Source: Nostoc punctiforme PCC 73102 (GTDB lineage Bacteria > Cyanobacteriota > Cyanobacteriia > Cyanobacteriales > Nostocaceae). From it: DNA of 32,000 nucleotides. The DNA lies in the NCBI RefSeq assembly GCF_000020025.1, contig NC_010628.1, positions 5,670,001 to 5,702,000 of the forward strand. Reading direction: 5' to 3'. This document shows, one piece after another, positions 428-19,538 of the stretch. Both the position numbers and the translations under genes were made by a program. How positions within the stretch are numbered: position 1 is the first letter of the stretch; each line of letters starts with the position of its first letter. The notes beneath the pieces are model-generated. The model ran no database searches, was not told the DNA's origin, and was given only the letters and a program-made list of their open reading frames with translations.

Positions 428-461
428 AGCAAAATAGATTTGTTTCATCAAAGATTTATGT

Positions 462-1820
462 TTAACTATCCAAGGGATGCTTTATCAGCAAAGGTTCAAT
501 ATATGCTTGCAGAATATCTTTAACTTTAGAAGGCTGCCGAACTGGAGCGATCGCAGAATAATCCGGTTTTACTGTCCAGTCATAATGGCGAAGTAGTGTG
601 GAAAGCACAATTTTCATTTCCATCTGGGCAAATTCCATACCTAAACAACTGTGCGAACCATAACCAAAACCCATTAGTGCTAAAGGATGTTTTTTATCTT
701 CTTCACGAGGTGGTGCAAAGCGATCGGGGTCGAAGCGATCGGGTTCGGTGTACAGTTCTGGTAAACGATGAGTCAGCATCGGCGAAATAGTCACAAACCA
801 ACCTGCTGGGATGCGATAGCCTCCATACTCAATATCCTTGAGGACACCACGATTATAGGCATACACTGGCGGATAGAGTCTTTCTGCTTCTTTTAGGACG
901 TTGGTTAACTGTGGAAATTGTTTGAGATGAGACAGGCTAAGGGGATTATTTCCCACAACTGCTAATTGTTCTTGGCGCAGCCGTTCTCGCCATTCTGGGT
1001 GATTACCTAATTCAAATATTACCCAAGTCAGTAATGAGGCTGTTGTCTCATGTCCAGCAAACAGCAATAGTAATGCTTCGTTGATTACCTGTGTTTCGCT
1101 CAACTTATTGCCGTCTTCATCAACAGCCGCTAGCAGCAATCCCAAAACATCTTTTGATTCTTCTAAGTTACCCTGCTCGATACGTTGGGCGATCGCTTCA
1201 CGTAAAAAAGCCACTAATTTACCCCTAGCATTTTGACCGCGACCATATAAAGTAAAGGGGACATTCCATTTGAATATTGCCATACTACTATCTAACAGTT
1301 GTGTAAACCACTGACTGGTTTGCTCAACTTCGCTCTTGTTCTGACTTCCCAAAAATAGGCGAGTCGCAATCATCAGGGTAAGCTGACGGAAACTAGAATT
1401 TAAGGAAATCGTTCCCCTTTCTCCCCAATCTTTGAGGAAGTCTTGCACAATATTTTGGATGGTATCGAAGTATGTAGCGATCGCTTTTCCATGAAATGCT
1501 GGATACATTAAGCGACGAGTTAACCGATGTTCTTCCCCGTCTTGTAATAAAATATTGTTGCCAAATGTTGATTCTAAAAAATACCACCCGATCCGCGACG
1601 ACATGTTTTCCGCCTGTTCCACCAGTACTAATCGATTAGCGCTAGGGCCAATTAAATAAGCACGTTTACGCCCCAAGACGCTCGTCTTAAAAACTGAACC
1701 ATACTGCTGGAATCGTCGCCATAAATACAACTCTGAATCCCGAAATATTTCCAAAGTCTCCCCCAAAATGGGTAAGCCATAGCTACCAGGAATTTCTTCG
1801 GCGGATTTTAACTGCTGCAT
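462..1820 (-). CDS. Cytochrome P450 monooxygenase (CYP120-like architecture)
   Basis: 452-aa ORF with the heme-thiolate loop FGYGSHSCLG, the I-helix LLFAGHETT and an ExxR-type region (EAERLYPP). The N-terminal IPGSYGLPILGETLE resembles my recollection of cyanobacterial CYP120. Confidence 0.9.
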   Translation of the reverse strand: MQQLKSAEEIPGSYGLPILGETLEIFRDSELYLWRRFQQYGSVFKTSVLGRKRAYLIGPSANRLVLVEQAENMSSRIGWYFLESTFGNNILLQDGEEHRLTRRLMYPAFHGKAIATYFDTIQNIVQDFLKDWGERGTISLNSSFRQLTLMIATRLFLGSQNKSEVEQTSQWFTQLLDSSMAIFKWNVPFTLYGRGQNARGKLVAFLREAIAQRIEQGNLEESKDVLGLLLAAVDEDGNKLSETQVINEALLLLFAGHETTASLLTWVIFELGNHPEWRERLRQEQLAVVGNNPLSLSHLKQFPQLTNVLKEAERLYPPVYAYNRGVLKDIEYGGYRIPAGWFVTISPMLTHRLPELYTEPDRFDPDRFAPPREEDKKHPLALMGFGYGSHSCLGMEFAQMEMKIVLSTLLRHYDWTVKPDYSAIAPVRQPSKVKDILQAYIEPLLIKHPLDS

Positions 1821-1896
1821 ATTTAAGTACCTCTAGCAGGAATTAGCTACAGTATCTACTTAATTCTAAAACTTAGTTAGCCCTTGCAAATCCAAA

Positions 1897-2400
1897 TTAC
1901 CAATCACGGTAGAGTTTTTCTGCATAGAACATAATCTCTTCATTTGGTAATCTAATTTTCGGTTTTTGCCGAGGATACAAACTTTCAACTGCACCTGTAT
2001 CCTGTTCAATGACTGTGGCTGCTGCTTGTAAAACTGAGTTTTTAAACAGAAATTTCATCAAAGGATTGACGACTCTGGCATACATCAAAATAAAAGTTCT
2101 GGTGATTTTGTCTGTTTCAGGGTAGAGAATATGAATTTGAGCAATATCACCAATCGGCGTTTTAGCAAAAAAAGCTGTAGTTGAAGGAAAAGCGTATTCT
2201 AGTGTGTTAGAAAGTGTTTTCGGAAGGATTCCCAAAACAGGGTTTTTGATAATTTCTCCTAACGTGTTGTTGGCTCTGATGAGTTCTTGTTTAACTGTGG
2301 CATAATATCCTTTTTCTTCAAAAGCATTGACATTACAATTTGTAATCTTAAATAGTTCTTTATGAGTACCATTTTGGTGATTATAGTCATAGTTAACCAT
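1897..2400 (-). CDS. Rieske-type non-heme-iron oxygenase catalytic (SRPBCC-fold) domain only; possibly a 5'-truncated remnant
   Basis: An internal ATG at 2400 gives 167 aa beginning MVNYDYNHQNGTH (D-x2-H-x4-H iron-ligand spacing), with a C-terminal VIEQDTGAVESL...EEIMFYAEKLY. No CxH...CxxH Rieske domain is present. The 35 codons upstream in the ORF track are antisense to the TetR HTH. Confidence 0.4.
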   Translation of the reverse strand: MVNYDYNHQNGTHKELFKITNCNVNAFEEKGYYATVKQELIRANNTLGEIIKNPVLGILPKTLSNTLEYAFPSTTAFFAKTPIGDIAQIHILYPETDKITRTFILMYARVVNPLMKFLFKNSVLQAAATVIEQDTGAVESLYPRQKPKIRLPNEEIMFYAEKLYRDW

Positions 2401-2995
2401 AGCGACGAAAAAGCAGATTCTCGATGCGGCGGAAGCAGAGTTTGCCAGAAATGGACTTAGTGGGGCGCGGACAGGAGCGATCGCTAAAGGTTCAGGTGTC
2501 ACCACAGCGATGATTTACTACTACTTCCAGAGCAAAGAAGGACTATATGAAGCTGTTCTGCAACGTCCGGCGGTGGAGATGCACGAAGGGTTTGAGCAGC
2601 TAAATTTGGATCAGTTCCCACCAGAGGAGGCGTTGAAGGTATTAGTTAAAGAAGCGATCGCTTATGAAGCTGCTCACCCGCACAGGGGAATGCTTTGGTT
2701 TCAGGAAGCAAACCAAAATCAGGGAAAGTATTTCAAACAGTCCAATTGGCAAGAAAATTTTAGCTATCTCATCAAAATTTTAGAGCGGGGGATGGCGGAA
2801 GGTTGTTTCCGTCAGATCGATCCATTTCTCACCACTCTGCATATTATTGGGGTTTGTAATATGTACTTCAACGCTTACGAAAACATCAAGCATACTAGAC
2901 CCGATTTGCAATTGCTGAGTCCAGAAATGATTGAGCAGCATACTCAAGCAGCAGTTAATTTTATTTTGGCTGGTGTGCGACGTAGTGAGAATTAG
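2393..2995 (+). CDS. TetR/AcrR-family transcriptional regulator; the open frame lacks a canonical start codon
   Basis: The frame is open from 2393 (a TAG precedes it at 2390-2392). Codons 2402-2560 encode the classic TetR HTH: TKKQILDAAEAEFARNGLSGARTGAIAKGSGVTTAMIYYYFQSKEGLYEAVL. There is no in-frame ATG, GTG or TTG before 2510, and 2510 lies inside the HTH. ATA at 2399 sits where a start would be expected. Confidence 0.8.
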   Translation, partial: LTIATKKQILDAAEAEFARNGLSGARTGAIAKGSGVTTAMIYYYFQSKEGLYEAVLQRPAVEMHEGFEQLNLDQFPPEEALKVLVKEAIAYEAAHPHRGMLWFQEANQNQGKYFKQSNWQENFSYLIKILERGMAEGCFRQIDPFLTTLHIIGVCNMYFNAYENIKHTRPDLQLLSPEMIEQHTQAAVNFILAGVRRSEN

Positions 2996-3023
2996 GGTAT
3001 GAATATTGGGAAACTGTGATCGC

Positions 3024-3599
3024 TTAACTCAAAATCTGTGCCAAATCTAGTATAAATCCAGGCAATACATCCTCTCCTGATAAGCTAGTAGGCGATTGTA
3101 AAACCTCAACATCCTGTCCTGGGCGGTAAATTTCTACCTGTTGGTTTTGTGGATCAATCAGCCAGCCTAAACGCACACCGTTATCGATATACTCCTGCAT
3201 CTTTTGTTGCACAGTCTTTAAGCTATCTGAAGCAGAGCGCAATTCTACGGCAAAATCGGGAGCAAGTGGTAGAAAACTTGCGGGGTCTGGATTCAGGGCT
3301 TCTAATCGCTCCCGGCTAATCCAGGATGCATCAGGAGACCGATTTGCACCATTAGGGAGCTTGAAACCCGTTGAGGAGTCAAAAGCCAAACCTGTGCCAT
3401 CAGCGTCAGCCCAATTACCTAAGCGCTGAGTTAGTCTACTATTGCGATTTCCGCTTTCCCATCCAGTTGGGGGCATAATAATTAATTCTCCCTCTGCTGT
3501 GCGCTCAAGTCGCAAATCTCGATTATTTTGACACAGTTGGAAGAACTGCTCATCTGTTAGTTCAATGGTGGGGCTGAGGTTTAGAATCAGGGCAGTCAT
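3024..3599 (-). CDS. Uma2-family (DUF820) PD-(D/E)xK endonuclease
   Basis: 191 aa with a typical Uma2 layout: LTDEQFFQLCQNNRDLRLERTAEGELIIMPP, PDASWI, APDFAVELRS, and a KMQEYIDNGVRLGWLIDP tail. Confidence 0.85.
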   Translation of the reverse strand: MTALILNLSPTIELTDEQFFQLCQNNRDLRLERTAEGELIIMPPTGWESGNRNSRLTQRLGNWADADGTGLAFDSSTGFKLPNGANRSPDASWISRERLEALNPDPASFLPLAPDFAVELRSASDSLKTVQQKMQEYIDNGVRLGWLIDPQNQQVEIYRPGQDVEVLQSPTSLSGEDVLPGFILDLAQILS

Positions 3600-3753
3600 A
3601 GTTGCCTCTCAATCTTGCTAACTGTAGCGTAGCATTTGGTTGACATACTAGGTTGTTATTAATCTTTTAGTATTAAAATTTACATATCCTTTTAAAATTA
3701 TCTAAGTTAAAAACTTATATTGTAAATCTGATTAATATTAGAGAGTATATTAA

Positions 3754-4796
3754 ATGAAAGAAATACAAAAAATAACTAGGTTTAACGGAATATCAAAGTG
3801 GTTATCTAACTCAGTTAGCGAATCGGAAGATAAGCGGTACACACATCGTCTGCTCAGAGAAGATAAAAGCCAACGAGATATAATTCTCAATGAATTAATA
3901 TTAATCGTTCAAAAAGCCCATGAAGATGCTCGATATGCCTTCGTAAATTAGCAGGAAATTCTCTTTTTCCATTTAGGGATTTTTCAGAAAGCGATCCAAG
4001 CTATGGCTATCCTGAACGTCTTAATATTATATCCCGTCAGAGTTATTTTGGAGATATATTTTCAGGAATTATTGCCGAAAATTTTGCTCATTTTGGACAG
4101 GATGATTGGGAAGTTCCTGCTTTTCTTTTCCGATTTCATCTAGTTGAGTTTCAACATTTAGAATTTCTAAATCAAACTGAAGAGATTGCAAAAAAGCGAC
4201 CTGGACGTACAGGTGATGATTGTCTTGCCTTTTTACGCAACAGCGAAGGAGTAATTATTGCTTCTCTATTTTGTGAAGCTAAATGCACAACTAATCATTA
4301 TACAAAAATGATAGCTGAAGCACATAAAAAGGCAAGTGAATTACATATAAAGCCTGTTGATATCCCACAAATAATTGAGATTTTGGGTGATTACGATGAT
4401 CATTTTTCATCTGAATGGGTTGATTCTCTAAGAGTTTTATGGCTAGAAAAAGTTGATAGAAATTATGAACGCTGCGATTTAATTAGTTATATTTGTGGTG
4501 AACATCCTGTCAGAAATCCTACTTGGATATTTCCCGACAGACCACACGAAGAATATAGAGCAGGAAGAAGACTTGAAGCAGTTGAAATTCATCTTCATGA
4601 AGTTGAAAATCTGGTTACAACCGTCTATAATCAGCCAGCAATTACAACACTTTCGGTAAATATTTCTAACCAGACAATTCAACAACCAGATGATTCAGAC
4701 GTTGCAAAAGCAAACTCTGATATCATAGTAGAGGCAGAAGTTCTGCAAAATCAGATGACTCAACCAAGTAACGAAGTCATTGCTTTAATATTGTGA
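3754..4796 (+). pseudogene. Frameshift-split gene for a PD-(D/E)xK nuclease (HamA/DUF1837-like); about 347 codons if fused
   Basis: The frame-1 ORF 3754-3951 overlaps frame 3, which is open from 3924 to 4796. Frame-3 codons 3951-4307 have no start and no stop, yet encode GDIFSGIIAENFA...RPGRTGDDCLAF...ASLFCEAKC (E...D...ExK). The region is AT-rich. Confidence 0.65.
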
Positions 4797-4820
4797 GTGG
4801 CAATAATTTGAGCATTACCA

Positions 4821-7553
4821 TTACGAATTCCGCACAGTGTTACTAGCCTTAAACTTAGGATAAGCAATGCGTTTGTGATGAAATTGCTGCCAAACATCCA
4901 CAAATATCTGAGCAATTAGTGACATCTCTTCCCGTTTTAGCCCTGAATCTATGAGTTGATTGTCTTGCCATTTAGCACGCAAGATATTATTTAGCATTGT
5001 TAAAGCTTGTTCGGTGGAGACATCTTTAAGCGATCGCTTCTCTCCCACAGATTTAGCCGATGCTTGCAGCGATCGCAGCGCTGCTTCACAAGAGTCCGCT
5101 AACATCACAATTCCGGTTTCCCGTGATTGGGGAATTGGGCCATCGTAGCGAAAATCTGCGTCGTCTACTGTTAAACTTGGATCTTCTTGAGCCATTTGCT
5201 GGGCTTGGTGATGGAAATAGGCAATTAGCATCGTTCCCTGATGCTCTGGAATAAAAGCTTGAATCGCTGTCGGTAAAAGGTGTTTACGCGCCATCACTAA
5301 CCCTTCTGTTACGTGCTTTTTGATAATCTCTGCACTCTTCCAAGGGTCTTTAATCTCTGTATCGTGTTTATTCGGCCCCCCCATTTGATTTTCAATAAAT
5401 CCAAGTGGGTCGTGCATTTTACCAATATCGTGATATAATGTTCCAGCCCTAACTAATTCAACATTGCATCCTAGTTCTTTGGCAGCAGCTTCGGCAAGGG
5501 TAGCTACAAATAACGTGTGTTGAAAAGTTCCAGGAGTCTCTGTAGCGAGTCGTTTTAATAAGGGCCGATTAGGGTTCGCCAACTCTGCTAAACGGATGGG
5601 AGTGACTAAATCGAAAACTTTTTCGAGATAAGGACTCAACCCTAAAGCTACAACACTCCAGCCTAAACCGGATAAAGCAAAAAACCCGGCTTCTCGGAGA
5701 ACTATATACCAGGTTGAACCAAATGCTTGACCAATTAAGATTTTAACAATCAGATAAATACTGCCCTGAGTTAAAGCGATCGCAACTCCTAATAAAGCCA
5801 ATTCTTCACGCGATCGCAATCTTTGCGCTATGTAACTACCTAATATTGCCCCACCAGCACCAGCTAACAGCGCCGCCTTGCTCATATCGAAGGTAATAGC
5901 CAATATTGGCAACAGCAGTCCAACAACTGTTAACCCTAAAGTCGCGCCGTAGAAGCTTCCCAACAATAAACCAAGGGCGCTCCAAGTGGTGTAAGGCAAT
6001 CCCATTGTCACCAATCCTGGCACACTTAGAGTTAGCAATAACACCAAAAGGCGATCGCGTTGTCGCAATTCGTAATCAATATGGCGTTCTACCCAAACAA
6101 AAACGCCAATGGCGATCGCTATCACGCCTCCTAACTTCAACAATCCCCGCCATTTTACTTCTCGGCGAACCAGGCGATAATACTCCAGCACCTCTACGTT
6201 CCATGCAGTAACCTGCTCTCCTTTTTTGACAATTACCTCACCACGGCGTACCTTCACCATTACAGGTGGCACTCCAGCAGCAGCCTTTTGAGCGTTTTCT
6301 CTAGTTTCTTCTTCATCTTTTTGCAGATTCGGCTTGAGTACAGCTAACAACAGGTTCTTTGCCAAAGGTTGGGCGGATTCTGGTACAAAGGACTGCAATT
6401 GCAAACTCACCGCATCCTGTAAGATATTTTTTGGCAGTCCTTGTGGGATGCCTTGGGTGAGAATCCGCTCCGCACTCTGATGGATTCCCATTTGTGTTTT
6501 TTCCCACTCCACATCTGATAAATCCAAAAGGAATGATTCTTCGTATACTGCTTCTGGGGTAACAGTCTCTAACTGTAAAAGTTTGGTAGTCGCTTCGGTG
6601 TATCTTTTGCGTGTTTGGGAAATTTGGGCAATCAGTAAAGACAAGTTTTTCTCAGAAGTTGTGACGCGGTAAGATTCTAGTTCTGCAACGGCTTGAGTAA
6701 AATCAGTACTTTGAGAAAAATCAACTGGCTCTGTTTTCTGTGGTGTTGTGCGCGGTTGACGTTCCTGATTGGGTGCAGCTATAGATGATGGACGGGATGA
6801 GGTGGTGGTTTCTCCTGTTCCTTTTTTCTGCTGATTTTTACTATTTTCTACGGCTAATAGCAGTGCTTTCCATTCTGACTCATTGCAAGAGCGGAGATAA
6901 CGCTGGGTAGAGATGGGCAAAACTACAGAATCAAAAAAAGGAAAAGCTCCAGCAACAGCGCGAATTTCGTTACCATCATCTAGAAGTTGTTGCAAATTTT
7001 CGTTGATTTGTTCGTTTATTCGCGCATCCAGCATCAACACTTGTAAGGAGCTTCTACTGACGGCTTTGCGCTCGGCTTCTGTTTTTTTCTGATCTTCGAT
7101 TTTAGCTGTATAAGGCGCTGTAATGGTTTGGGGCGCGGAATGTCCTACTTGGAGTTGAGTTTGGTTGTAGAATTTTTGTCCAATAACACCTGTAAGAGAT
7201 AGGATAGCGATCGCTAAAATTACCAAGGAGCGCTGTTCATGTACCCAATCTAAACAGACTGAATAAATACTACTCTTAGTTTTGACCGATTTTGCCTTTG
7301 ACTGGAGCGCTTTTTCTTGTTTTCGACGAGCGCTTTTCTCATTGCTTTTGGATAAAAATAAGATTACATTCTTCAGGAAAGTCCTTAAAAGTTGCTTTCT
7401 ATCGCTTTTACTTTTGGGACTTCTCATTAACTTTCCTTTACGGCGTAGTCCTTTGTACTGTCGCCGCCAGTGAGTCAATTGCTGGGTTAAGAACTGCAAA
7501 AATTCCTGCATTTTCATTATCTCTGCCTGCAATTGCCTACTTTGATAGCTCAA
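4821..7553 (-). CDS. 7TM-receptor HD/HDIG phosphohydrolase (PgpH-like); start codon uncertain
   Basis: It has an N-terminal basic region and one TM segment, then a large extracytoplasmic region, a block of about 7 TM helices (VIAIAIGVFVW ... GLGWSVVALGL), and an HD domain with LYHDIGK, EHQGT and IVMLADSCEAA. Confidence 0.85.
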   Translation of the reverse strand: MSYQSRQLQAEIMKMQEFLQFLTQQLTHWRRQYKGLRRKGKLMRSPKSKSDRKQLLRTFLKNVILFLSKSNEKSARRKQEKALQSKAKSVKTKSSIYSVCLDWVHEQRSLVILAIAILSLTGVIGQKFYNQTQLQVGHSAPQTITAPYTAKIEDQKKTEAERKAVSRSSLQVLMLDARINEQINENLQQLLDDGNEIRAVAGAFPFFDSVVLPISTQRYLRSCNESEWKALLLAVENSKNQQKKGTGETTTSSRPSSIAAPNQERQPRTTPQKTEPVDFSQSTDFTQAVAELESYRVTTSEKNLSLLIAQISQTRKRYTEATTKLLQLETVTPEAVYEESFLLDLSDVEWEKTQMGIHQSAERILTQGIPQGLPKNILQDAVSLQLQSFVPESAQPLAKNLLLAVLKPNLQKDEEETRENAQKAAAGVPPVMVKVRRGEVIVKKGEQVTAWNVEVLEYYRLVRREVKWRGLLKLGGVIAIAIGVFVWVERHIDYELRQRDRLLVLLLTLSVPGLVTMGLPYTTWSALGLLLGSFYGATLGLTVVGLLLPILAITFDMSKAALLAGAGGAILGSYIAQRLRSREELALLGVAIALTQGSIYLIVKILIGQAFGSTWYIVLREAGFFALSGLGWSVVALGLSPYLEKVFDLVTPIRLAELANPNRPLLKRLATETPGTFQHTLFVATLAEAAAKELGCNVELVRAGTLYHDIGKMHDPLGFIENQMGGPNKHDTEIKDPWKSAEIIKKHVTEGLVMARKHLLPTAIQAFIPEHQGTMLIAYFHHQAQQMAQEDPSLTVDDADFRYDGPIPQSRETGIVMLADSCEAALRSLQASAKSVGEKRSLKDVSTEQALTMLNNILRAKWQDNQLIDSGLKREEMSLIAQIFVDVWQQFHHKRIAYPKFKASNTVRNS

Positions 7554-8882: not shown

Positions 8883-9350
8883 TTACGTTTCATTTTTTCT
8901 TAAATGATTTACCAAAGCTTGTAAGCCCAACAAGTAACTTTGAACACCAAAACCACTTATTTGCCCGATCGCAACTGGGGCGATGTACGAATGATGGCGA
9001 AAATCTTCCCGGCGGTAAATATTACTCAGATGTACTTCGACTGTGGGCAAGTTAACAGCCGCGATCGCATCTCGCAATGCCACACTTGTGTGAGTATATG
9101 CCCCGGCATTAATCAAAATTCCTTGATGTTGTCCTAATGCTTCATGAATAGTATCTACTAAAATTCCTTCATGATTTGATTGCAAGGGAAAAACTTTCGC
9201 CTGTAACTTGAATCCTTCTTCTTCTAACAGGCGGTTAATTTCAGCTAGTGTCAACGAACCATAAATTCCTGGTTCTCGCTGCCCTAGCAAATTCAAGTTT
9301 GGCCCATGCAGTGCCAGAATGCTTAAGGGTTGTAATGTCGAGTTCAGCAC
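8883..9350 (-). CDS. aroQ: Type II 3-dehydroquinate dehydratase
   Basis: 155 aa with [38 protein letters not shown] and [21 protein letters not shown] start. Confidence 0.95.
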
Positions 9351-9357
9351 TTTGGCT

Positions 9358-9498
9358 CTAGTGGCGACGACGCGAGCGATCGTTTACAGGAATCGGAATC
9401 AGTTCCGGTTCCGGTTCAGCCTCTGGCCCTAACAGGCTTTCAATCAGCCTGCGTGCTAATTCCTTAAGCTTTTCCAGCACCTTTTCTATATAGTCCAT
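9358..9498 (-). CDS. Small hypothetical protein (46 aa), apparently translationally coupled to aroQ
   Basis: Hand translation gives [51 protein letters not shown] lies 9 nt upstream of the ATG, and its stop is 7 nt before the aroQ GTG. It is below the ORF-track length cutoff. Confidence 0.45.
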
Positions 9499-9984
9499 GA
9501 ACTGAATGCTCCTGAGATACTACCTCAAATTTTGATTAACAGGTACGCAGAAAATGGCACATTGTCGTACCTCTGGCTTCCAACCGGGCACAGACACAAT
9601 CCCGTATTTGGGACATAAGCCACTTCTAAAATTTGGCGTTGTGTTCTCCCTTACTTTTTAGAGTATCACACTTGCAACCTACAGAACTGCATCCTATCAA
9701 GGATGAATATCAAGGGTCAAGAGTTTAAAGCTCGGACTTTGGACTCTTGACTACGAATTTTAGATTTACGATAGTGTAGCGTCAAGCCTGCGGCATGGCT
9801 TCTCTACGAGACACTACGCGTAGCTCGCTTTTCCGTAGGAGTACGCTTAGAGCAACGTAGGAGCGTCTTTTAGATTTTAGATTTATTTCGCCTACAAGAG
9901 GGAGCCACTGCGGTGGACGGGTTCTCCGGCATAAAGCAAGTGGCATCAGGGTATGAACCCCAAAATTTTTTTAATCCAAGTTGC

Positions 9985-10023
9985 GCTGGAAGCGCACCAA
10001 AGGTGCGACCCAAAATCCAAAAT
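9985..10023. repeat. Second, inverted copy of the 39-bp dispersed repeat
   Basis: gctggaagcgcaccaaaggtgcgacccaaaatccaaaat is the reverse complement of 8774-8812 with 2 mismatches. It sits in a repeat-rich intergenic stretch (9700-10037). Confidence 0.85.
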
Positions 10024-10037
10024 CAGTTGACTTACAG

Positions 10038-12698
10038 TTAGCCTTCTGTGACTTTCTTTTTCGCAGCCGTCGTTGACTTAGCAGTTGACTTACCTGTTGA
10101 CTTAGATTTGGAATTCGTTGATTTAGTCGTTTTGCGAGTTGATTTCGCTGTCGATGCCTTAGCTGCCAATAAGTTAAGCGCCTCAGTCAGGGTTATATCT
10201 TCTACAGTTTGACCTTCTGGAATACTCACATTAGTTTTGCCATGCTTGATGTAAGGACCATAAGGGCCATCGTAGATGTTAATTGTTTCCCCGTCCTCTG
10301 GATGTGGACCCAATTCGCGTAAGGCTGCCTTGGACTTGCTGTTGGTGGAACTACGTCCCTTTTTGGGTTCGGACAATAATTCTAATGCACGTTCCAGGCT
10401 AATTGTCAACACATTGTCAGCAGCTTTCAGGGAACGGTAATCTTTCCCTTCCTTACCCTGGTCATGAACCACATAAGGGCCAAAACGTCCCAAACTTGCT
10501 TGGATTTTGCCCCCAGTAACTGGATGAACTCCCAATGTTCGGGGTAGTGCCAACAGACCAACAGCCATTTCCAGGGTAACGGTTTCTGGGGTGACACCCT
10601 TGAGTAGAGAAGCTTGTTTCGGTTTGGGGTTTTCGTCGGTTTTATCGCCCAATTGGACATAAGGCCCATAAGCACCAATTTTCACATAAATCGGTTCGCC
10701 AGTTTCGGGATGCCGACCTACCTGGTCAGGGCCTGTGATTTTTTGTCGCAGCAAAACTTCTACCTGTTTGGGGTCGAGGTCTGCTGGTGTCAAGTCTTTG
10801 GGAATTGAGGCGGTGATTACCCCCTCACCATTTGTAACTTCAATGTAGGGGCCATATTTACCAATGCGGACTTTGGCATCTAGATTCTCCAGTTCTACAG
10901 TCCTAGCTGTGGTGGCATCAATTTGACTTTCCCGTTCTTTTACCAGGGTTTCCAACCCTTTCTCTCCCAGATAGAATTTCTGCAAGTAGGGTAGCCATTT
11001 CGCTTCACCTGTGGCAATGTCATCAAGGGTTTGCTCCATCTTCGAGGTAAAACTAGGATCAACGATGTCTGGGAAATGTTTTTCCAGCAAGTCGGTGACG
11101 GCGAAAGCGGTGAAGGTAGGAATGAGAGCGTTACTCACCAAATGGGCATAACCTTTGTCGATGATCGTACCAATAATGCTGGCGTAGGTACTGGGACGAC
11201 CGATACCTTCACTCTCTAAGGTTTTCACCAAAGAAGCTTCGGTGTATCTAGCTGGCGGTTGAGTTTCATGCCCAACTGCTTCTAAATCTGTACAATTCGG
11301 ATGATCTCCCACTTTCAAATTCGGCAAAATTACTTCCTGGTCTTCCAGTGCTGCTTCTGGGTCATCTGAACCTTCGACGTAAGCACGTAAATATCCAGGA
11401 AATTCAATCCGTTTGCCAGAGGAACGGAATCCAGCATCCTCAACTTGTAATTGCACGCTAATTTGAGTTTGGCAGGAATCAGCCATTTGACAGGCGACAG
11501 TCCGCTTCCAAATCAAATCGTAAACGGCAAGTTCTCGACCGCCCAAACCAGTTTCTTGGGGGGTGCGAAAGGTGCTACCGGCTGGACGAATTGCTTCGTG
11601 CGCCTCTTGTGCGCCTTTGGATTTAGTGGTGTATTGCCGGGGTTGGGGACTGAGGTATTGTTGACCGTAAAGCTTTTCTACAGAACTCCGAGCAGCTGCG
11701 ATCGCTTGATCTGACAAATGCACCGAATCTGTCCGCATATAGGTAATATACCCTTGTTCGTACAAATTCTGGGCAACGCGCATCGTATCGCGGGCTGAGA
11801 GGCGCAGTTTCCGGTTAGATTCTTGTTGCAGTGTCGAGGTGGTAAACGGTGGCGACGGCTTGCGCGTCACTGGACGTTCTTCCATCTCGGTAACACTCCA
11901 GGTTTTCCCAGTTAGGCGTTCCTTGAGGGCTACCGCTTGGTCTTCGTTGAGCAACAAGACATTGCGACCTGCGGTAATTTGTCCGGTTGTTGCGTCAAAA
12001 TCGCTACCGTTAGCAATTTTGGTTCCTGCCAATGTTACCAACTGAGCAGCAAAGGGGGTTTTTTCCTTTGACAGACTGGCTTTCAAATCCCAGTAAGTGC
12101 CCTCATGGAAAGCGCGGCGTTGGCGTTCTCTTGTGACTAAAAGCCTCACGGCTACAGATTGTACCCGCCCAGCAGATAATCCCCAGGCGATTTTTTTCCA
12201 TAGCAGTGGAGACAGCGTATATCCCACAAGTCGATCTAAAATCCGCCGCGTTTCTTGGGCGCGAACCAACTGCTCATCGATTTGGCGGCAGTCCTTCAGA
12301 GCTTTTTTGATCGCCTCTTGGGTAATTTCGTGAAACACCATCCGCTTAGTTGGAACTTTCGGCTTCAGCAATTGGTATAAATGCCAACTAATGCTTTCAC
12401 CTTCCCGGTCTTCGTCCGTTGCCAGAATCAGTTCATCTACATCTTTAAGGGCTTCTTTAAGCTGGGTGACAATTTTCTTTTTGTCTTTCGGGACAACATA
12501 TACCGGTTCAAAGTCGGCGTCCACATTTACCCCTAGCTGCGCCCATGTTTCCCCCTTGACGGCAGCAGGAATTTCACTAGCCGACTGGGGTAAGTCACGC
12601 ACATGACCCATAGACGCTTCCACCCGATAGCCTGCTGGCAAGTAGTTGCGAATGGTACGAGCTTTGGTTGGAGATTCGACGATGACGAGAGTTGACAT
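10038..12698 (-). CDS. topA: DNA topoisomerase I (type IA) with a K/S/T-rich C-terminal tail
   Basis: 886 aa. It has a TOPRIM N-terminus ([22 protein letters not shown]), the active-site region YITYMRTDS, repeated C-terminal GPYGPY modules, and the tail [31 protein letters not shown]. Confidence 0.97.
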
Positions 12699-14465: not shown

Positions 14466-14602
14466 CTGCTTCAGTGACTTTCCCTATTTAGAATCATACT
14501 AAAAAAGTGTAAGACTTATTTTTTCAACCATACACAAAACAAAAGACACAAAGTATTAACTTGCATCTTATTTTAATATTAAAAAATTAGAAAGCAATAA
14601 GA

Positions 14603-14845
14603 TTCGGTTAAGGTTTTTTGATGGAAATTCTAGATCGCAAAGACGCGATAATATCAAGTTCGCATAATTAGTTATAATTCCCACAGTCATTGCACCTCAC
14701 CCCCAACCCCTCCCCGCCTGCGGGGAGGGGAGACAGCGCGTAGCTTTGGCGTGGTGGGGTTATTCGGGTTTAATAAGTAATCAAGCGAACATGATATAAA
14801 TCATCACAAAGGCGCGATAAATCGCCGTCTCTTGCCTTAACCGAA
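14603..14845. mobile_element. MITE-like nested palindromic element (243 bp)
   Basis: Perfect 11-bp terminal inverted repeats: ttcggttaagg at 14603-14613 and ccttaaccgaa at 14835-14845. It has imperfect inner inverted repeats and a central hairpin, cccctccccgc-ctgc-ggggagggg. No ORF. It ends 10 nt from the porin stop codon. Confidence 0.6.
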
Positions 14846-14855
14846 CAGTATTGAA

Positions 14856-16460
14856 TTAGAAAGTGAATGTGGTTCTCACTGTACCAATGACGATATCATC
14901 GTTTTGATTATTATGATCTGGCGCTGTTAGCCAGATAACTCCTGGGGTGATGCTGATATTGTCACTCAGCTTATATTGATAGAAACCTTCAATATGATAT
15001 GAAGTGTCTGGATCTTTATTTATACCTGCATTGCTGAGAGAGCCGCTCACGCTGGTAACTTTAGGTTCCATACCCACAATGATGCCTGCAATGTTACCTG
15101 TTTTCCCAAGATCGGGGAAAGCCAGTGTGACGGCATAGTTCCAGATGTCAGCATCGCCAGGAGTAACCGAAAGGACGCGAGCTTTGGTCAAGCCAGCCCA
15201 ACCGCCAATCACGAATTTTGAGCTAGGTTGAAAGGATGCTTCTATACCGTAGGAGTTACTAGAAGCATTCTCCAATATGTCATTAGCGTTATTGCTACCA
15301 CCACTACCATTGGCAAAAAAAGTATTTTTGTAGGCGTTAAGGTAGGTCAAACCGAGGGTAATTTGGTTGCTAGGCTTAACAGTTAACTGTGCCATAGCAC
15401 CATAAGCACCATTGAATAGTCCAGAGCCTAGTTGAGGGTTAGCAGCATCATTCGCTAAATACCCCAAGCTTAGTTCGAGCTTATCACTGAACTCGTGTTT
15501 GATTCCGATACCAGTACCATTGACTAGATAATAAATTGGGTTGCGAGTCCCAAATTGGGAAAGGGCACCGCTACCACCGTCCCCATCTAAGTATGGGTTG
15601 ACTGTATTAGTGAAATCATCAATTGCACCTGCATTTGCTTCCAGAGTGACGCCTGTTTTATTACCGAGAGGGAACTGATACAAGAGTGCGTCTATCACAA
15701 CTCCGTTACTGTTATTACCACCAGCAAATCGGAAGTCACCTTCTGGTGTAAAGGTAGCAGTCTGAGAGAAGGGGTCTAGGTTTGTTGCCTGAAGTCGTGT
15801 TCTGAGTAAATCTTTACCAGTGAAACTGGTGTCGAGGTTCAGACGCACCCGATCTGCAAGGACAGCATTTTGGTTGACTTCTTGACCATTAACTGTATTA
15901 CCACTTACAACACTTGCGATCGCTATTACGACTTCACCATTCAACTTGGTTGTAGTTGAGAACTGATTCGCCTCCAATTCAGCAGTTTTAGCTTCTACTG
16001 CATCTACACGACCTCGGAGTGTCGCCAGTTCTGCTGAAAAATCTGCTTGCAGCTTTTGTAATGTTGCTAAATCTTGTTTGTTAACTAAATCGCTTGTGGC
16101 TGTAGCAATAAGTTCGTTAACGCGATCGAGACAAGCATTCAAACCAGCAGCAAACTCATATCGCGTTAATGCGCGATTACCACGATAAGTACTATTTGGG
16201 TATCCTGCAATACAGCCATAGCGCTCAACTAACGACTGCAATGCTTGGAATGCCCAGTCAGTAGGTTGTACATCAGAAAATTGAGATACGGAAGTAACTT
16301 GCCCTGTTATGTGAGTGTTTGTGTCTGGACTAGCTAAAACTTGCGGTTGATTGATTTCAGACGTAGCGGATGTTTCACCTGCAAATGCAGCAGTACTCAC
16401 AAATAGCATTGCACAGCAAACTGCTGGACTAACTAGCAGATATTTACAGAAATTTTGCAT
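14856..16460 (-). CDS. SLH-domain / OprB-type outer-membrane porin; start moved to Met-38 of the ORF
   Basis: Signal peptide MQNFCKYLLVSPAVCCAMLFVSTAAFA with GAGGAG upstream. It also has an SLH motif (FSDVQPTDWAFQALQSLVERYGCIAGYPNSTYRGNRALTRYEFAAGLNACL), a coiled-coil linker, a beta-barrel region rich in alternating residues, and a terminal F. Confidence 0.9.
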   Translation of the reverse strand: MQNFCKYLLVSPAVCCAMLFVSTAAFAGETSATSEINQPQVLASPDTNTHITGQVTSVSQFSDVQPTDWAFQALQSLVERYGCIAGYPNSTYRGNRALTRYEFAAGLNACLDRVNELIATATSDLVNKQDLATLQKLQADFSAELATLRGRVDAVEAKTAELEANQFSTTTKLNGEVVIAIASVVSGNTVNGQEVNQNAVLADRVRLNLDTSFTGKDLLRTRLQATNLDPFSQTATFTPEGDFRFAGGNNSNGVVIDALLYQFPLGNKTGVTLEANAGAIDDFTNTVNPYLDGDGGSGALSQFGTRNPIYYLVNGTGIGIKHEFSDKLELSLGYLANDAANPQLGSGLFNGAYGAMAQLTVKPSNQITLGLTYLNAYKNTFFANGSGGSNNANDILENASSNSYGIEASFQPSSKFVIGGWAGLTKARVLSVTPGDADIWNYAVTLAFPDLGKTGNIAGIIVGMEPKVTSVSGSLSNAGINKDPDTSYHIEGFYQYKLSDNISITPGVIWLTAPDHNNQNDDIVIGTVRTTFTF

Positions 16461-16665
16461 TTTTCTCCTCACACTGATCTTCAATTCACACCCAAAGCAC
16501 GTTTTTTTAACGTGTATTTCATGCAAATATTTGTCAGTAATATTATCAGAAATAGACAACCTTTCTAACAAAAAAAGTCAAGAAATCCTAATTATTCAAG
16601 GAAAACTAAATTGCAGAGGACTGTACCATCTGACAAAGTTTTGTTGTTACTCATTACACAGGAAA

Positions 16666-16768: not shown

Positions 16769-17782
16769 GTGACGATCAATGGCAAAGGGCTGATCGCAGG
16801 AAGGCAAAGAAGCGGCATCTTGTCCATGATGACTCTACTAATGTTGTCAATGATTACTGGCTGTAGCCAATCGAATCCGAATCAGGGAACAATACCTGAA
16901 CAGTCGCCGCAAGCACAGGCGACTGTATCCACCCCAGTAGCGCAGTTAGGAAAAACTAAAGTTGTGACGACATTTTTGCCGATATATTTGTTTACTAAGG
17001 CAGTAGCTGGGAATGTGGCAGATGTAGAAATTCTAGTGCCGCCTGGTACGGAGGTACATGAATACCAAGCGACACCCGAAAATGTCAAAGCGATCGCAAC
17101 TGCGAATGTGTTAGTAAAAAATGGTTTAGGTTTAGAGGGATTTCTGGAAAATACGGTCAAAAATGCTCAAAATACTAAATTAGCTGAAATTGATGCCAGT
17201 AAGGGTATTAAACCCTTAAATGAAATTTCACCTGTTGTAAAAACAGCGAAGGAGGAAGAAGACCACGAACACGCCCAAGGTAATCCTCATGTTTGGTTAG
17301 ATCCAGTTTTGGCAAAACAACAGGTAACTAATATTCGGGATGGATTAATTGCTGCTGACCCGGCGAATAAAGTCACTTACGAAGCAAATGCTGCGGCTTA
17401 TATTAAAGAATTAGAAAGTTTAAATAATGAATTTCAACGGACTTTACAAAAAACTCCTAGTTGCACCTTTATTACCTTTCATGATGCGTTTCCATATTTA
17501 GCAAAACGCTATAACCTCAAGCAAGTTGCTGTGGTACAAATTCCTGAAGATCAACTTTCACCGACTGATGTGCAAAATGCCGTCAATGCTGTTAAAAAGT
17601 ACAAAGTTAAAGCTTTATTTAGTGAACCAGGAGTAGATAACAAACTCCTAAGTAGCCTCTCCAAAGACTTGAAATTAACTTTGCGTCCTCTGGATTCCCT
17701 GGAAACTGGCGAAACAGATCCACAGCATTATTTCAAGGCAATGAAAGCTAACTTACAAATTTTGGAAACGTCGTGTAAATAG
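16769..17782 (+). CDS. znuA: Zn/Mn-family ABC transporter substrate-binding lipoprotein
   Basis: GTG start with GAGGAGG 8 nt upstream. It has a lipobox (ITGCS), the acidic/His loop KEEEDHEHAQGNPHVWLDP, and an FHDAFPYLAKRY motif. Confidence 0.85.
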   Translation: MTINGKGLIAGRQRSGILSMMTLLMLSMITGCSQSNPNQGTIPEQSPQAQATVSTPVAQLGKTKVVTTFLPIYLFTKAVAGNVADVEILVPPGTEVHEYQATPENVKAIATANVLVKNGLGLEGFLENTVKNAQNTKLAEIDASKGIKPLNEISPVVKTAKEEEDHEHAQGNPHVWLDPVLAKQQVTNIRDGLIAADPANKVTYEANAAAYIKELESLNNEFQRTLQKTPSCTFITFHDAFPYLAKRYNLKQVAVVQIPEDQLSPTDVQNAVNAVKKYKVKALFSEPGVDNKLLSSLSKDLKLTLRPLDSLETGETDPQHYFKAMKANLQILETSCK

Positions 17783-17894
17783 GTTTTTCATTTGTCCTTT
17801 TTCATTTGTCCTTTGTAAAAAATAATGACCAATGACCAATAATTAATGACTAATAACCAATGATTAATGATTAAGAACCAATGACTAATGATAT
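17783..17894. repeat. 14-bp direct duplicate (tttttcatttgtcc x2) followed by a degenerate heptamer array (atgacca-type, about 10 units) running into the znuC start
   Basis: Units are phased every 7 nt from 17825: atgacca, atgacca, ataatta, atgacta, ataacca, atgatta, atgatta, agaacca, atgacta, atgatat. The ATG of the ninth unit (17881) is the znuC start codon. Confidence 0.8.
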
Positions 17895-18657
17895 TGCTAT
17901 TTTAAAAGTAGAAGGATTAACTGTCTATCAAGGTAGTTATTTAGCTGTTCGAGATGTTTCTTTTGAATTATTGCCAGGAACAGATACAGCCATAGTTGGT
18001 CCCAATGGTGCTGGTAAAAGTACTCTGGTAAAAGCGGTTTTAGATTTGATACCTCGAAGTGCTGGTACGATTGAAATATTCGGTCGTCCAATTGCAAGGT
18101 TGGGGCGTTTGCGTCATTTGTTGGGTTATATGCCGCAAAATTTCATCTTTGACCGCAGCTTTCCTATTTCTGTTAGCGAATTGGTGGGTCTGGGATGGGC
18201 AAAGGAAGGAAAAAAGGGAGATTTATTTTTCTCCAAGTTGTGGAGACAAGACCGAGAAAAATCGGCAGCAGTAGGAGAAGCTTTACGGCGAACCGATGCT
18301 TATCATTTACAGCATCAAGCTATTGGGACTCTTAGCGGTGGCCAACTTAAGCGGGTGTTGTTGGCTTATTGTTTGGTAATGTCTCGAAAACTGTTGGTAC
18401 TCGATGAAGCCTTTGCTGGTGTTGATGTGCAAGGTTCAGCAGATTTTTACGCTTTGCTAAATGAATTAAAGCGAGAGGAGGGTTGGACGGTATTACAAGT
18501 TTCCCATGATATTGATATGGTAAATCGCCATTGCGATCGCGTGCTTTGCCTGAACCAAAGCATTGTTTGTACTGGTAAACCGGAAATTGCCCTTTCACCG
18601 CAAAACCTGTTAGCAACATACGGTCCAGGTTTCAGCCGTTACCAGCACCAACATTAA
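17881..18657 (+). CDS. znuC: Metal (Zn/Mn) ABC transporter ATP-binding protein
   Basis: Walker A GPNGAGKST, signature LSGGQLKRV, Walker B LLVLDEAF. Confidence 0.9.
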   Translation: MTNDIAILKVEGLTVYQGSYLAVRDVSFELLPGTDTAIVGPNGAGKSTLVKAVLDLIPRSAGTIEIFGRPIARLGRLRHLLGYMPQNFIFDRSFPISVSELVGLGWAKEGKKGDLFFSKLWRQDREKSAAVGEALRRTDAYHLQHQAIGTLSGGQLKRVLLAYCLVMSRKLLVLDEAFAGVDVQGSADFYALLNELKREEGWTVLQVSHDIDMVNRHCDRVLCLNQSIVCTGKPEIALSPQNLLATYGPGFSRYQHQH

Positions 18658-18668
18658 AGTTTATAAAT

Positions 18669-19538
18669 ATGGATTTCTTCAATGATTGTCAGATATCTTG
18701 GCTTGCGATCGCCAGTAGTAATGACTTGGTAAGCTTGTTAACATTCCCTTTCATGCAGCGTGCGATCGTCGGTGCTGTGTTAATGGGAATACTTGGCGGG
18801 ATGTTGGGCAGTTTTGTCACCTTGCGCCAGTTGTCCTTTTTCAGCCACGCCGTTGGTCATGCAGCATTAGTAGGTGTGGCGTTAGGTGTACTACTCCAAA
18901 TAAATCCGACTTGGATGCTGTTACCTTTTACCTTGGTTTTCGGCGTTATTGTCCTCTACTTCATCGACAAAACCGATTTAGGTAGCGATAGCGTCCTTAG
19001 CATAGTGCTATCTGGGGCATTAGCGATCGGTGTAATTCTCACTAGCCTGATTAAAGGATATCGTGGCAACTTGATGGCTGTGCTGTTCGGGGATATTCTA
19101 GCGATCGATACCATAGATTTGATTTTGACGCTGCTAGTACTTGTAGGAGGTAGCATATTTTTACTATCAACCTTGCGACAGCAAATTTTATTGACCCTTA
19201 ACCCTGATGTCGCACAAGTCCAAGGCGTTCCCGTCCAATTGTACCGCTATGTATTTGTGGTTTTGCTTTCACTCGCCGTTGCCGTAGCGATTAAAGCTGT
19301 CGGCGTTTTACTGGTGAACGCCTTTTTGGTTATTCCCGCCTCTACTGCCAAACTGATGAGTCACCACTTTAGCCGCTTTCTAGTCATATCAGTGATAGTT
19401 GGTTCCATCAGCAGCATTGCTGGCATCATTGTCTCTGGTATTTTCAACCTTGCTTCTGGCCCAAGTATTGTTCTTGTCCAATTCCTGCTATTTATAGCTG
19501 TTTTCATCTGGTTTAAGTTGAATTTGAAAGCCGCATAA
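18669..19538 (+). CDS. znuB: Metal ABC transporter permease (ABC-3 family)
   Basis: 289-aa polytopic membrane protein that follows znuC after an 11-nt gap. It has the typical ABC-3 GDILAI motif. Confidence 0.9.
   Translation: MDFFNDCQISWLAIASSNDLVSLLTFPFMQRAIVGAVLMGILGGMLGSFVTLRQLSFFSHAVGHAALVGVALGVLLQINPTWMLLPFTLVFGVIVLYFIDKTDLGSDSVLSIVLSGALAIGVILTSLIKGYRGNLMAVLFGDILAIDTIDLILTLLVLVGGSIFLLSTLRQQILLTLNPDVAQVQGVPVQLYRYVFVVLLSLAVAVAIKAVGVLLVNAFLVIPASTAKLMSHHFSRFLVISVIVGSISSIAGIIVSGIFNLASGPSIVLVQFLLFIAVFIWFKLNLKAA

Follow-up and report, generated by a model that had tools for sequence, protein, structure and literature searches.

Hachiman is an anti-phage defence system built from the PD-(D/E)xK nuclease HamA and the Ski2-like helicase HamB, which holds the nuclease and controls it (PMC12278908). 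Defence is lost when either gene is deleted, and HamB seems to keep HamA soluble (PMC12278908). According to one study, HamA expressed alone is not toxic in E. coli and causes no growth defect (PMC13064477). Tuck et al. left open whether HamA is handed over to DNA by HamB in cis or set free to act in trans (PMC12278908). Domain-fusion variants of Hachiman have been described as well, namely AbpAB/type I-B Cap4-HamA (PDB 8ZUE, PMC11914072) and trypsin-HamA (PMC12799240, bioRxiv 10.1101/2025.09.03.673762).

Here, we analyse a stretch of 32,000 nucleotides from the chromosome of Nostoc punctiforme PCC 73102 (NC_010628.1, positions 5,670,001 to 5,702,000 of the forward strand), referred to as the window in the following. 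An earlier note, made from the letters alone, had pointed to a frame-split gene for a HamA/DUF1837-like nuclease at this place and had offered three readings, i.e. a decaying remnant of a defence system, a phase-variable gene or an undescribed stand-alone nuclease family. We conclude that the segment 3754-4796 is very probably a pseudogene, representing the broken 5' part of a single-ORF hamA-hamB gene for a one-polypeptide Hachiman system.

Results

A split reading frame in an AT-rich islet

Translation of the window reveals a 65-aa ORF in frame 1 (3754-3951), which terminates at the TAG codon 3949-3951, and a stop-free stretch in frame 3 that extends from 3924 to the TGA codon at 4794-4796 and comprises 290 sense codons. 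The two frames share an overlap of 27 nt (...CGATATGCCTTCGTAAATTAG). The first 128 codons of frame 3 contain no ATG, GTG or TTG, the earliest of these being the ATG at 4308, and the stretches FGDIFSGIIAENFA, RPGRTGDDCLAF and ASLFCEAKC are all found in its translation. The GC content at 3600-4800 is 33.9% as compared to 41.3% for the whole window, and none of the 34 HIP1 sites of the window falls into the 2.4-kb gap around the locus (2654-5030). Neighbouring genes are a Uma2 gene (3024-3599, minus strand; E 1e-49) and a convergent 7TMR-HDED/HD gene (4821-7553, minus strand). The earlier note had reported the two frames, the lack of start codons, the AT-rich composition without HIP1 and both neighbours, and all its statements on the sequence were verified. 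When repaired, the window protein has 353 homologues with a top E-value of 3e-199, which excludes a chance ORF and identifies the locus as the relic of a true gene. A promoter scan detected a weak promoter-like site at 3692-3721; apart from this, promoter/terminator and repeat scans of the locus gave no signal over background that would alter the interpretation. The Uma2 gene also has a PADLOC match (E 4e-11), to the candidate defence family PDC-S03, and Uma2 adjoins hamAB in most Nostoc loci that have the same chromosomal context.

The frame break lies at codon 62

Alignment of the DNA with the related loci L001 and L003 (L numbers designate the loci compared) shows that a single C is absent between T3936 and G3937, i.e. 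in codon 62 (Arg), where the window reads TAT-GCC as compared to TATCGTC in both relatives. The true repair yields ...DARYRLRKLAG..., and two Nostoc orthologues give ...AHEDARYRLRKLAGNSL... in a single frame. Other Nostocales copies inspected at this stretch also stay in frame (11 of 12 translated copies, plus L012, L016 and others). The earlier note had suggested that one extra A in the run at 3945-3947 would fuse both frames; this is arithmetically correct, but the alignment places the real lesion at the missing C, and ...DARYAFVKLAG... is the product of the other repair.

The break site is neither a homopolymer nor a repeat nor a slippery sequence. Since the lesion lies outside any repeat or homopolymer, phase variation as envisaged by the earlier note fails. 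Programmed -1 ribosomal frameshifting could formally join the frames, as the transition from frame 1 to frame 3 corresponds to -1 and takes place within a 27-nt overlap. However, this overlap contains neither an X XXY YYZ slippery heptamer nor a repeat tract, the relatives have one base more and are simply in frame, and a joined product would still be devoid of HamB. Rescue of the gene by frameshifting or phase variation thus has virtually no probability. Selection for the frameshift through toxicity of an orphan HamA was considered as well and is unsupported, as HamA alone caused no growth defect in one study (PMC13064477), and we treat the frameshift as neutral decay.

Evidence for a divergent HamA subfamily

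Our data support the assignment of the split gene to HamA, the PD-(D/E)xK nuclease of Hachiman, here without its helicase. This assignment derives from the fold, from profile matches of family members and from gene context, the window protein itself having no profile match. Searches of the repaired window protein against Pfam, PADLOC and NCBIfam returned nothing useful, with no match at E<=10 in Pfam and PADLOC; DUF2848 (E 0.045), the sole match in the profile searches, was taken as noise. An exhaustive profile search delimited a family of 354 clusters at 50% identity, whose core of about 290 aa is 45-60% identical across phyla. Among 52 family members, 22 and 24 matched the PADLOC HamA1 models PDLC00155 and PDLC00159, respectively (E<0.01, best 8.9e-9), and member P0103 matched Pfam HamA with 13.8 bits, which is below the 25-bit cut-off. 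Profile searches with the repaired protein, as proposed by the earlier note, were hence negative for the window protein in Pfam and PADLOC, the HamA1 matches coming from part of its relatives. The family is a compact, divergent HamA subfamily. By HMMER it remains separate from the bulk of DUF1837, which explains why the window protein has no Pfam match.

Structures were modelled for the frame-3 product of the window and for the full-length relative P0003, and in Foldseek searches, also proposed by the earlier note, the solved HamA structure 8vxy_A topped both lists. For the AlphaFold model of P0003 (pLDDT 90.1), the two best matches were 8vxy_A and 8vx9_A (E about 5e-7, Foldseek probability 1.0, TM 0.57-0.68), followed by 8zue_A, another Hachiman HamA. 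For the window's own frame-3 product (AF2 model, pLDDT 78.9), 8vxy_A matched with an E-value of 2.8e-3 and a Foldseek probability of 1.0. Judged from these models, the predicted fold is that of HamA, that is a PD-(D/E)xK core with helical insertions. In the P0003 model, D150 is located just before one strand and E169-x-K171 within the next strand, and this predicted placement of D and ExK on adjacent strands is the classic PD-(D/E)xK arrangement. There are 36 invariant positions among the 52 family members, including D156, E175 and K177 (window numbering); the window copy keeps all of them, and the three named residues are kept in 13 of 13 Nostocales copies.

Gene context provides a further link to Hachiman. 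A separate HamB is encoded directly downstream in all three split-gene relatives whose context was read (within L005-L008), and the next gene in two non-cyanobacterial members encodes a DEAD/ResIII helicase of 1187-1199 aa. As for the genes flanking intact homologues, a point raised by the earlier note, the Nostocales homologues carry the HamB helicase in the same ORF. Adjacency or fusion to HamB thus holds for the family, i.e. for every relative examined, but not for the window copy.

An undescribed stand-alone nuclease family unrelated to Hachiman, the third reading of the earlier note, would be compatible with the missing Pfam, PADLOC and NCBIfam matches of the window protein and with the compactness of the 354-cluster family and its missing HMMER link to the bulk of DUF1837. 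It would also agree with a search of the family profile against PDB sequences, which gave chance matches only (E >0.4). However, the match to the HamA fold, the HamA1 matches of the relatives and the presence of HamB, either as the next gene in three of three split-gene relatives with context read or within the same ORF in the rest, leave this reading with next to no probability: what we see is a subfamily of HamA that goes together with HamB. The original recognition of a HamA/DUF1837-like PD-(D/E)xK nuclease is accordingly borne out by fold, relatives, invariant D...ExK residues and HamB linkage.

Two members of the HamA subfamily from outside the window, P0005 and P0035, have added domains related to replication proteins, namely DnaA_N-like_STI at the C terminus (PF23007, E 2.5e-8) or DnaX_C at the N terminus (PF20964, E 2.5e-12).

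Intact relatives encode HamA and HamB in a single ORF

In the Nostoc locus L001, a 523-aa orthologue of the window protein is followed by one stop codon and then, in the same frame, by a 994-aa helicase that matches PADLOC HamB1 (E 3.4e-59). Beyond L001, twelve further Nostoc and Rhizonema loci were compared. In L010, L011, L012, L015 and L016, hamAB is uninterrupted and forms a single ORF of 1529-1557 aa. It is collinear with HamA (295 aa) and HamB (1199 aa) of L005, which are encoded by separate genes, and comparison with separate HamA and HamB proteins sets the limits of its parts: HamA at residues 7-294, a 40-aa linker at 295-334 and HamB at 335-1529, with residues 404-1475 matching PADLOC HamB1 (E 6.7e-64). 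A HamA domain is N-terminal in 70 of the 120 best HamB-type clusters, about 55 of which are full length (1470-1624 aa). The fused proteins originate from Nostoc, Rhizonema, Calothrix, Dolichospermum, Leptothoe, other cyanobacteria and metagenomic contigs, and those named by source are all annotated as DEAD/DEAH box helicase, superfamily II helicase or hypothetical protein.

The fused gene is a stand-alone gene in varied contexts, frequently near toxin-antitoxin genes, and in L012 and L016 hamAB resides at another genomic context. Complete hamAB has 37% GC and zero HIP1 sites (GCGATCGC) in 4.6 kb, as compared to 10-25 HIP1 sites per surrounding 21-kb locus. As intact copies are also low in GC and devoid of HIP1, the AT-rich islet in the window is a property of the hamAB gene itself. 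Composition and varied context suggest a horizontal origin or mobility of hamAB.

On balance, we lean slightly towards the view that the remnant stems from a natural single-polypeptide form of Hachiman, composed of HamA, a flexible linker of 13-110 aa and HamB, a fused form that is usual in Nostocales and common in the subfamily. Neither a covalent HamA-HamB protein nor Hachiman in Nostoc was found in the open-access Hachiman literature, so that the parent gene with its fusion is apparently a Hachiman variant not described before.

Truncation and rearrangement of the window copy

The window retains the first 23% of hamAB at 3754-4796, up to codon 345, all on the plus strand. Codons 1-61 are in frame 1 (3754-3936) and encode the N-terminal strands and the long helix of HamA; they are 93% identical to L010 aa 1-61 and collinear with L001 and L003. 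Downstream of the frame break (3936-3937), codons 63-345 continue in frame 3 (3939-4787; 89% identity to L010 aa 63-345) and cover the PD-(D/E)xK core and the C-terminal portion of HamA, followed by the linker of 40 aa and by 11 residues from the start of HamB. The catalytic motif (4215-4283) is intact, with D155-D156 at 4215-4220, E175 at 4275-4277 and K177 at 4281-4283. Homology to hamAB ends at nt 1035 of about 4590, at a deletion or rearrangement junction with the 5-bp microhomology CTTTA (4783-4787), and blastn places this breakpoint identically against 14 of 14 related loci. The earlier note had recognised neither this 3' truncation nor the fused form of the ancestral gene, nor that low GC and lack of HIP1 extend to intact copies. 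The tail ATA TTG TGA (Ile-Leu-stop, 4788-4796) is junction-derived and not part of hamAB, the window protein ending in ...NEVIALIL as compared to ...NEVIALA(K/T)ELQNSLAG... in relatives. These final two codons and the stop derive from a 38-bp relic from the interior of a PIN_3 toxin gene (4783-4820), located between hamA' and the HD gene, which corresponds to L001 18721-18758 (PIN_3 gene 18650-19072) and, with 100% identity, to L019 16868-16905.

Upstream of the gene, the region 3600-3753 is shortened: about 270 bp present in L001, L009, L010, L011 and others are missing, leaving a scar at 3645-3653, and the proximal 100 bp are conserved. At 431-465, that is 3.3 kb upstream of the 5' relic, we found a displaced hamAB 3' relic of 35 nt on the plus strand, consisting of the final 11 codons and the TAA stop at 463-465. 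In tblastn with an intact orthologue, matches were confined to 3754-3936 and 3939-4787, and HamB is absent from the 32-kb window, in agreement with the earlier note, which had seen no helicase nearby.

Relatives that keep the flanks have the gene order Uma2-hamAB-p450-Rieske-TetR, as compared to p450-Rieske'-'TetR followed by Uma2-hamA' in the window. Mapped onto L001 by blastn, window 431-2400 corresponds to 14556-16522 (last 35 nt of hamAB, p450 and the 3' part of the Rieske gene), 2402-3013 to 17373-17984 (3' part of TetR), 3018-3644 to 8998-9624 (Uma2), 3654-4787 to 9902-11035 (with hamAB nt 1-1035), 4783-4820 to 18721-18758 (the 38 bp from PIN_3) and 4819 onward to 19176 onward (HD gene). 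This permuted order may have arisen if the block from Uma2 to TetR was duplicated in tandem and deletions came later.

Six breakpoints within 5 kb against all relatives, a permuted block order and a tandem array with other repeats at the left edge could also be signs of an assembly chimera, in which case hamAB would in reality lie whole or nearly whole between Uma2 and p450, as in the relatives. We consider this very unlikely. The junctions are clean and have short microhomologies, with no long repeats to mislead an assembler, sister genomes have suffered independent deletions at the same locus, so that decay of this kind is normal here, and the hamAB 3' relic at 431-465 fits a real rearrangement.

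Several further features accompany the rearranged region. A 21-bp unit (AATGCAAGCTGACGCATTAAC) is repeated seven times with 98% identity at 281-428 (flanks 260-449); the array abuts the hamAB 3' relic at 431 and occupies the place of the HamB-coding part in relatives. At junction 2400/2401 (1897-2995), two divergent genes lost their 5' ends through one deletion of 850 bp, which took about 150 N-terminal codons from the gene for the Rieske oxygenase and about 21, encoding the HTH, from the TetR gene. No Pfam match is obtained with the Rieske remnant and TetR is left with its C-terminal domain only, both probably being pseudogenes, and the p450 gene (462-1820) beside the Rieske remnant looks intact. 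The spot between TetR and the HD gene is variable, with HicB/PIN_3 in L001 and DUF4160/DUF2442 in L003, i.e. toxin-antitoxin pairs differ among sister genomes. Finally, a perfect 17-nt inverted repeat (GAACCGTATTGGATTAT / ATAATCCAATACGGTTC) with a 13-nt loop is present at 72-118 and 187-204, with a related third copy nearby, and may represent a small repeat element that borders the rearranged region on the left.

Probable pseudogene status and decay across Nostocales

Three lesions disable the gene: loss of everything past codon 345, i.e. of HamB but for 11 residues, in a microhomology-mediated event, either a deletion or a rearrangement, which also changed the order of the neighbouring genes; loss of a single C in codon 62; and loss of about 270 bp of the upstream region. 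HamA without HamB, the frameshift and the shortened upstream region make a pseudogene the best reading of the segment, given that both Hachiman genes are needed for defence. Neither half of a functional Hachiman system is left in the window, as the HamA frame is closed by the stop at 3949-3951 and HamB is lacking throughout the 32 kb. The fragment presumably gives no functional product, and among the readings in the earlier note, the truncation at 4787, the missing C, the upstream loss and the absent HamB support that of a defence system remnant in decay.

If the missing C were a sequencing or assembly error, the genome would encode an uninterrupted 347-aa orphan HamA, comprising nuclease and linker, that is expressed and may have a HamB-independent role. 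Intact catalytic and invariant residues, a dN/dS that is not raised and conservation of 100 bp upstream, including the weak promoter-like site at 3692-3721, would agree with such a protein, and it might be tolerated, as HamA alone was non-toxic in E. coli in one study (PMC13064477). However, repair of the base still leaves a truncation 11 residues into HamB and a junction-derived tail, and about 270 bp upstream are deleted too. Moreover, sequencing errors concentrate in homopolymers, outside of which the lesion is located. Split-gene relatives have HamB directly downstream (three of three) and other examined relatives have it in the same ORF, and Hachiman defence requires both parts, with HamB solubilising HamA (PMC12278908). 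We therefore regard a genuine orphan HamA as unlikely and retain the pseudogene reading.

Decay of hamAB is not restricted to the window. Among 15 Nostocales loci, 5 are intact, 4 have one in-frame stop and 6 have deletions, the window included, so that 10 of 15 are damaged. The in-frame stops are at different positions in L001 (11570-11572), L013, L014 and L019, and the deletions differ among L003, L009, L017, L018 and L020. Comparison of these sequences indicates that the sister loci decayed independently. In databases, the pieces of stop-bearing hamAB genes are entered individually, as 'hypothetical protein' and 'DEAD/DEAH helicase'.

Substitutions private to the window copy comprise 2 synonymous and 10 non-synonymous changes, which fits neutrality, small as these numbers are. 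Pairwise dN/dS values are 0.31-0.50 for the window copy and 0.35-0.62 for intact pairs, i.e. the window is not raised. As the catalytic residues are intact and dN/dS is not raised, loss of hamA' was probably recent; alternatively, dN/dS is insensitive here. G97S and E101D, at near-invariant positions, were considered as markers of decay and rejected, as the intact L010 has both of them too.

Discussion

Taken together, the split gene at 3754-4796 is a dead piece of a known defence system, brought about by ordinary gene decay, and annotation as a hamA-hamB pseudogene is preferable to two hypothetical ORFs. Its relatives expose a compact, divergent HamA subfamily that Pfam misses, and fused HamA-HamB proteins have probably been overlooked by two-gene detection rules. 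The 15 Nostocales loci constitute a small natural experiment in defence-gene loss at one chromosomal site. If the fusion is functional, its repeated decay in Nostoc would indicate a real fitness cost, e.g. autoimmunity.

By analogy, we infer that the intact fusion works like two-subunit Hachiman. In this scenario, the helicase would scan DNA, as described for the two-subunit system (PMC12278908), until damaged or 3'-overhang DNA triggers ATP hydrolysis. The N-terminal helical domain of HamB would then move and unmask the tethered nuclease, which, once freed, would degrade DNA without sequence specificity. The 40-aa linker would keep the nuclease tethered and may thereby favour cleavage in cis. 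If the fusion is functional, the nuclease need not be released into solution, which bears on the choice between cis and trans cleavage, and the natural fusion represents a ready-made test of nuclease release in Hachiman.

Among the described systems, HamAB of E. coli ECOR31 (PDB 8VX9/8VXY; Tuck et al. 2024, PMC12278908) provides the HamA fold that is the top structural match of the Nostoc family. Both share the D...E-x-K nuclease motif, in which E175 and K177 may correspond to ECOR31 E138/K140, and a Ski2-like DEAD/ResIII partner that matches PADLOC HamB1, including the HamA-binding N-terminal region. However, HamA of ECOR31 is only about 14% identical and gives no match at the sequence level, and HamA and HamB of Nostocales form one polypeptide with a 40-aa linker, of which the window preserves the frameshifted HamA module only. 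Much closer are the split-gene members of the subfamily from Peptococcaceae (L005; HamA 295 aa, HamB 1199 aa) and Paenibacillus odorifer (L008), which align with the window protein along the entire HamA module at 45-60% identity and have the same invariant residues. Their HamB shares 62% identity with the corresponding part of the fused Nostoc protein. In these bacteria the system consists of two overlapping, intact genes, whereas Nostoc has one ORF, which is broken in the window copy. Cap4-HamA, whose structure 8zue_A ranked third in the structural search, and trypsin-HamA are domain-fusion variants of Hachiman as well, and the published fusions found in open-access papers are N-terminal additions to HamA only. 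In both of them HamA carries an additional effector or protease at its N terminus and HamB is a protein of its own, whereas in Nostoc it is the C terminus of HamA that is joined to the N terminus of HamB.
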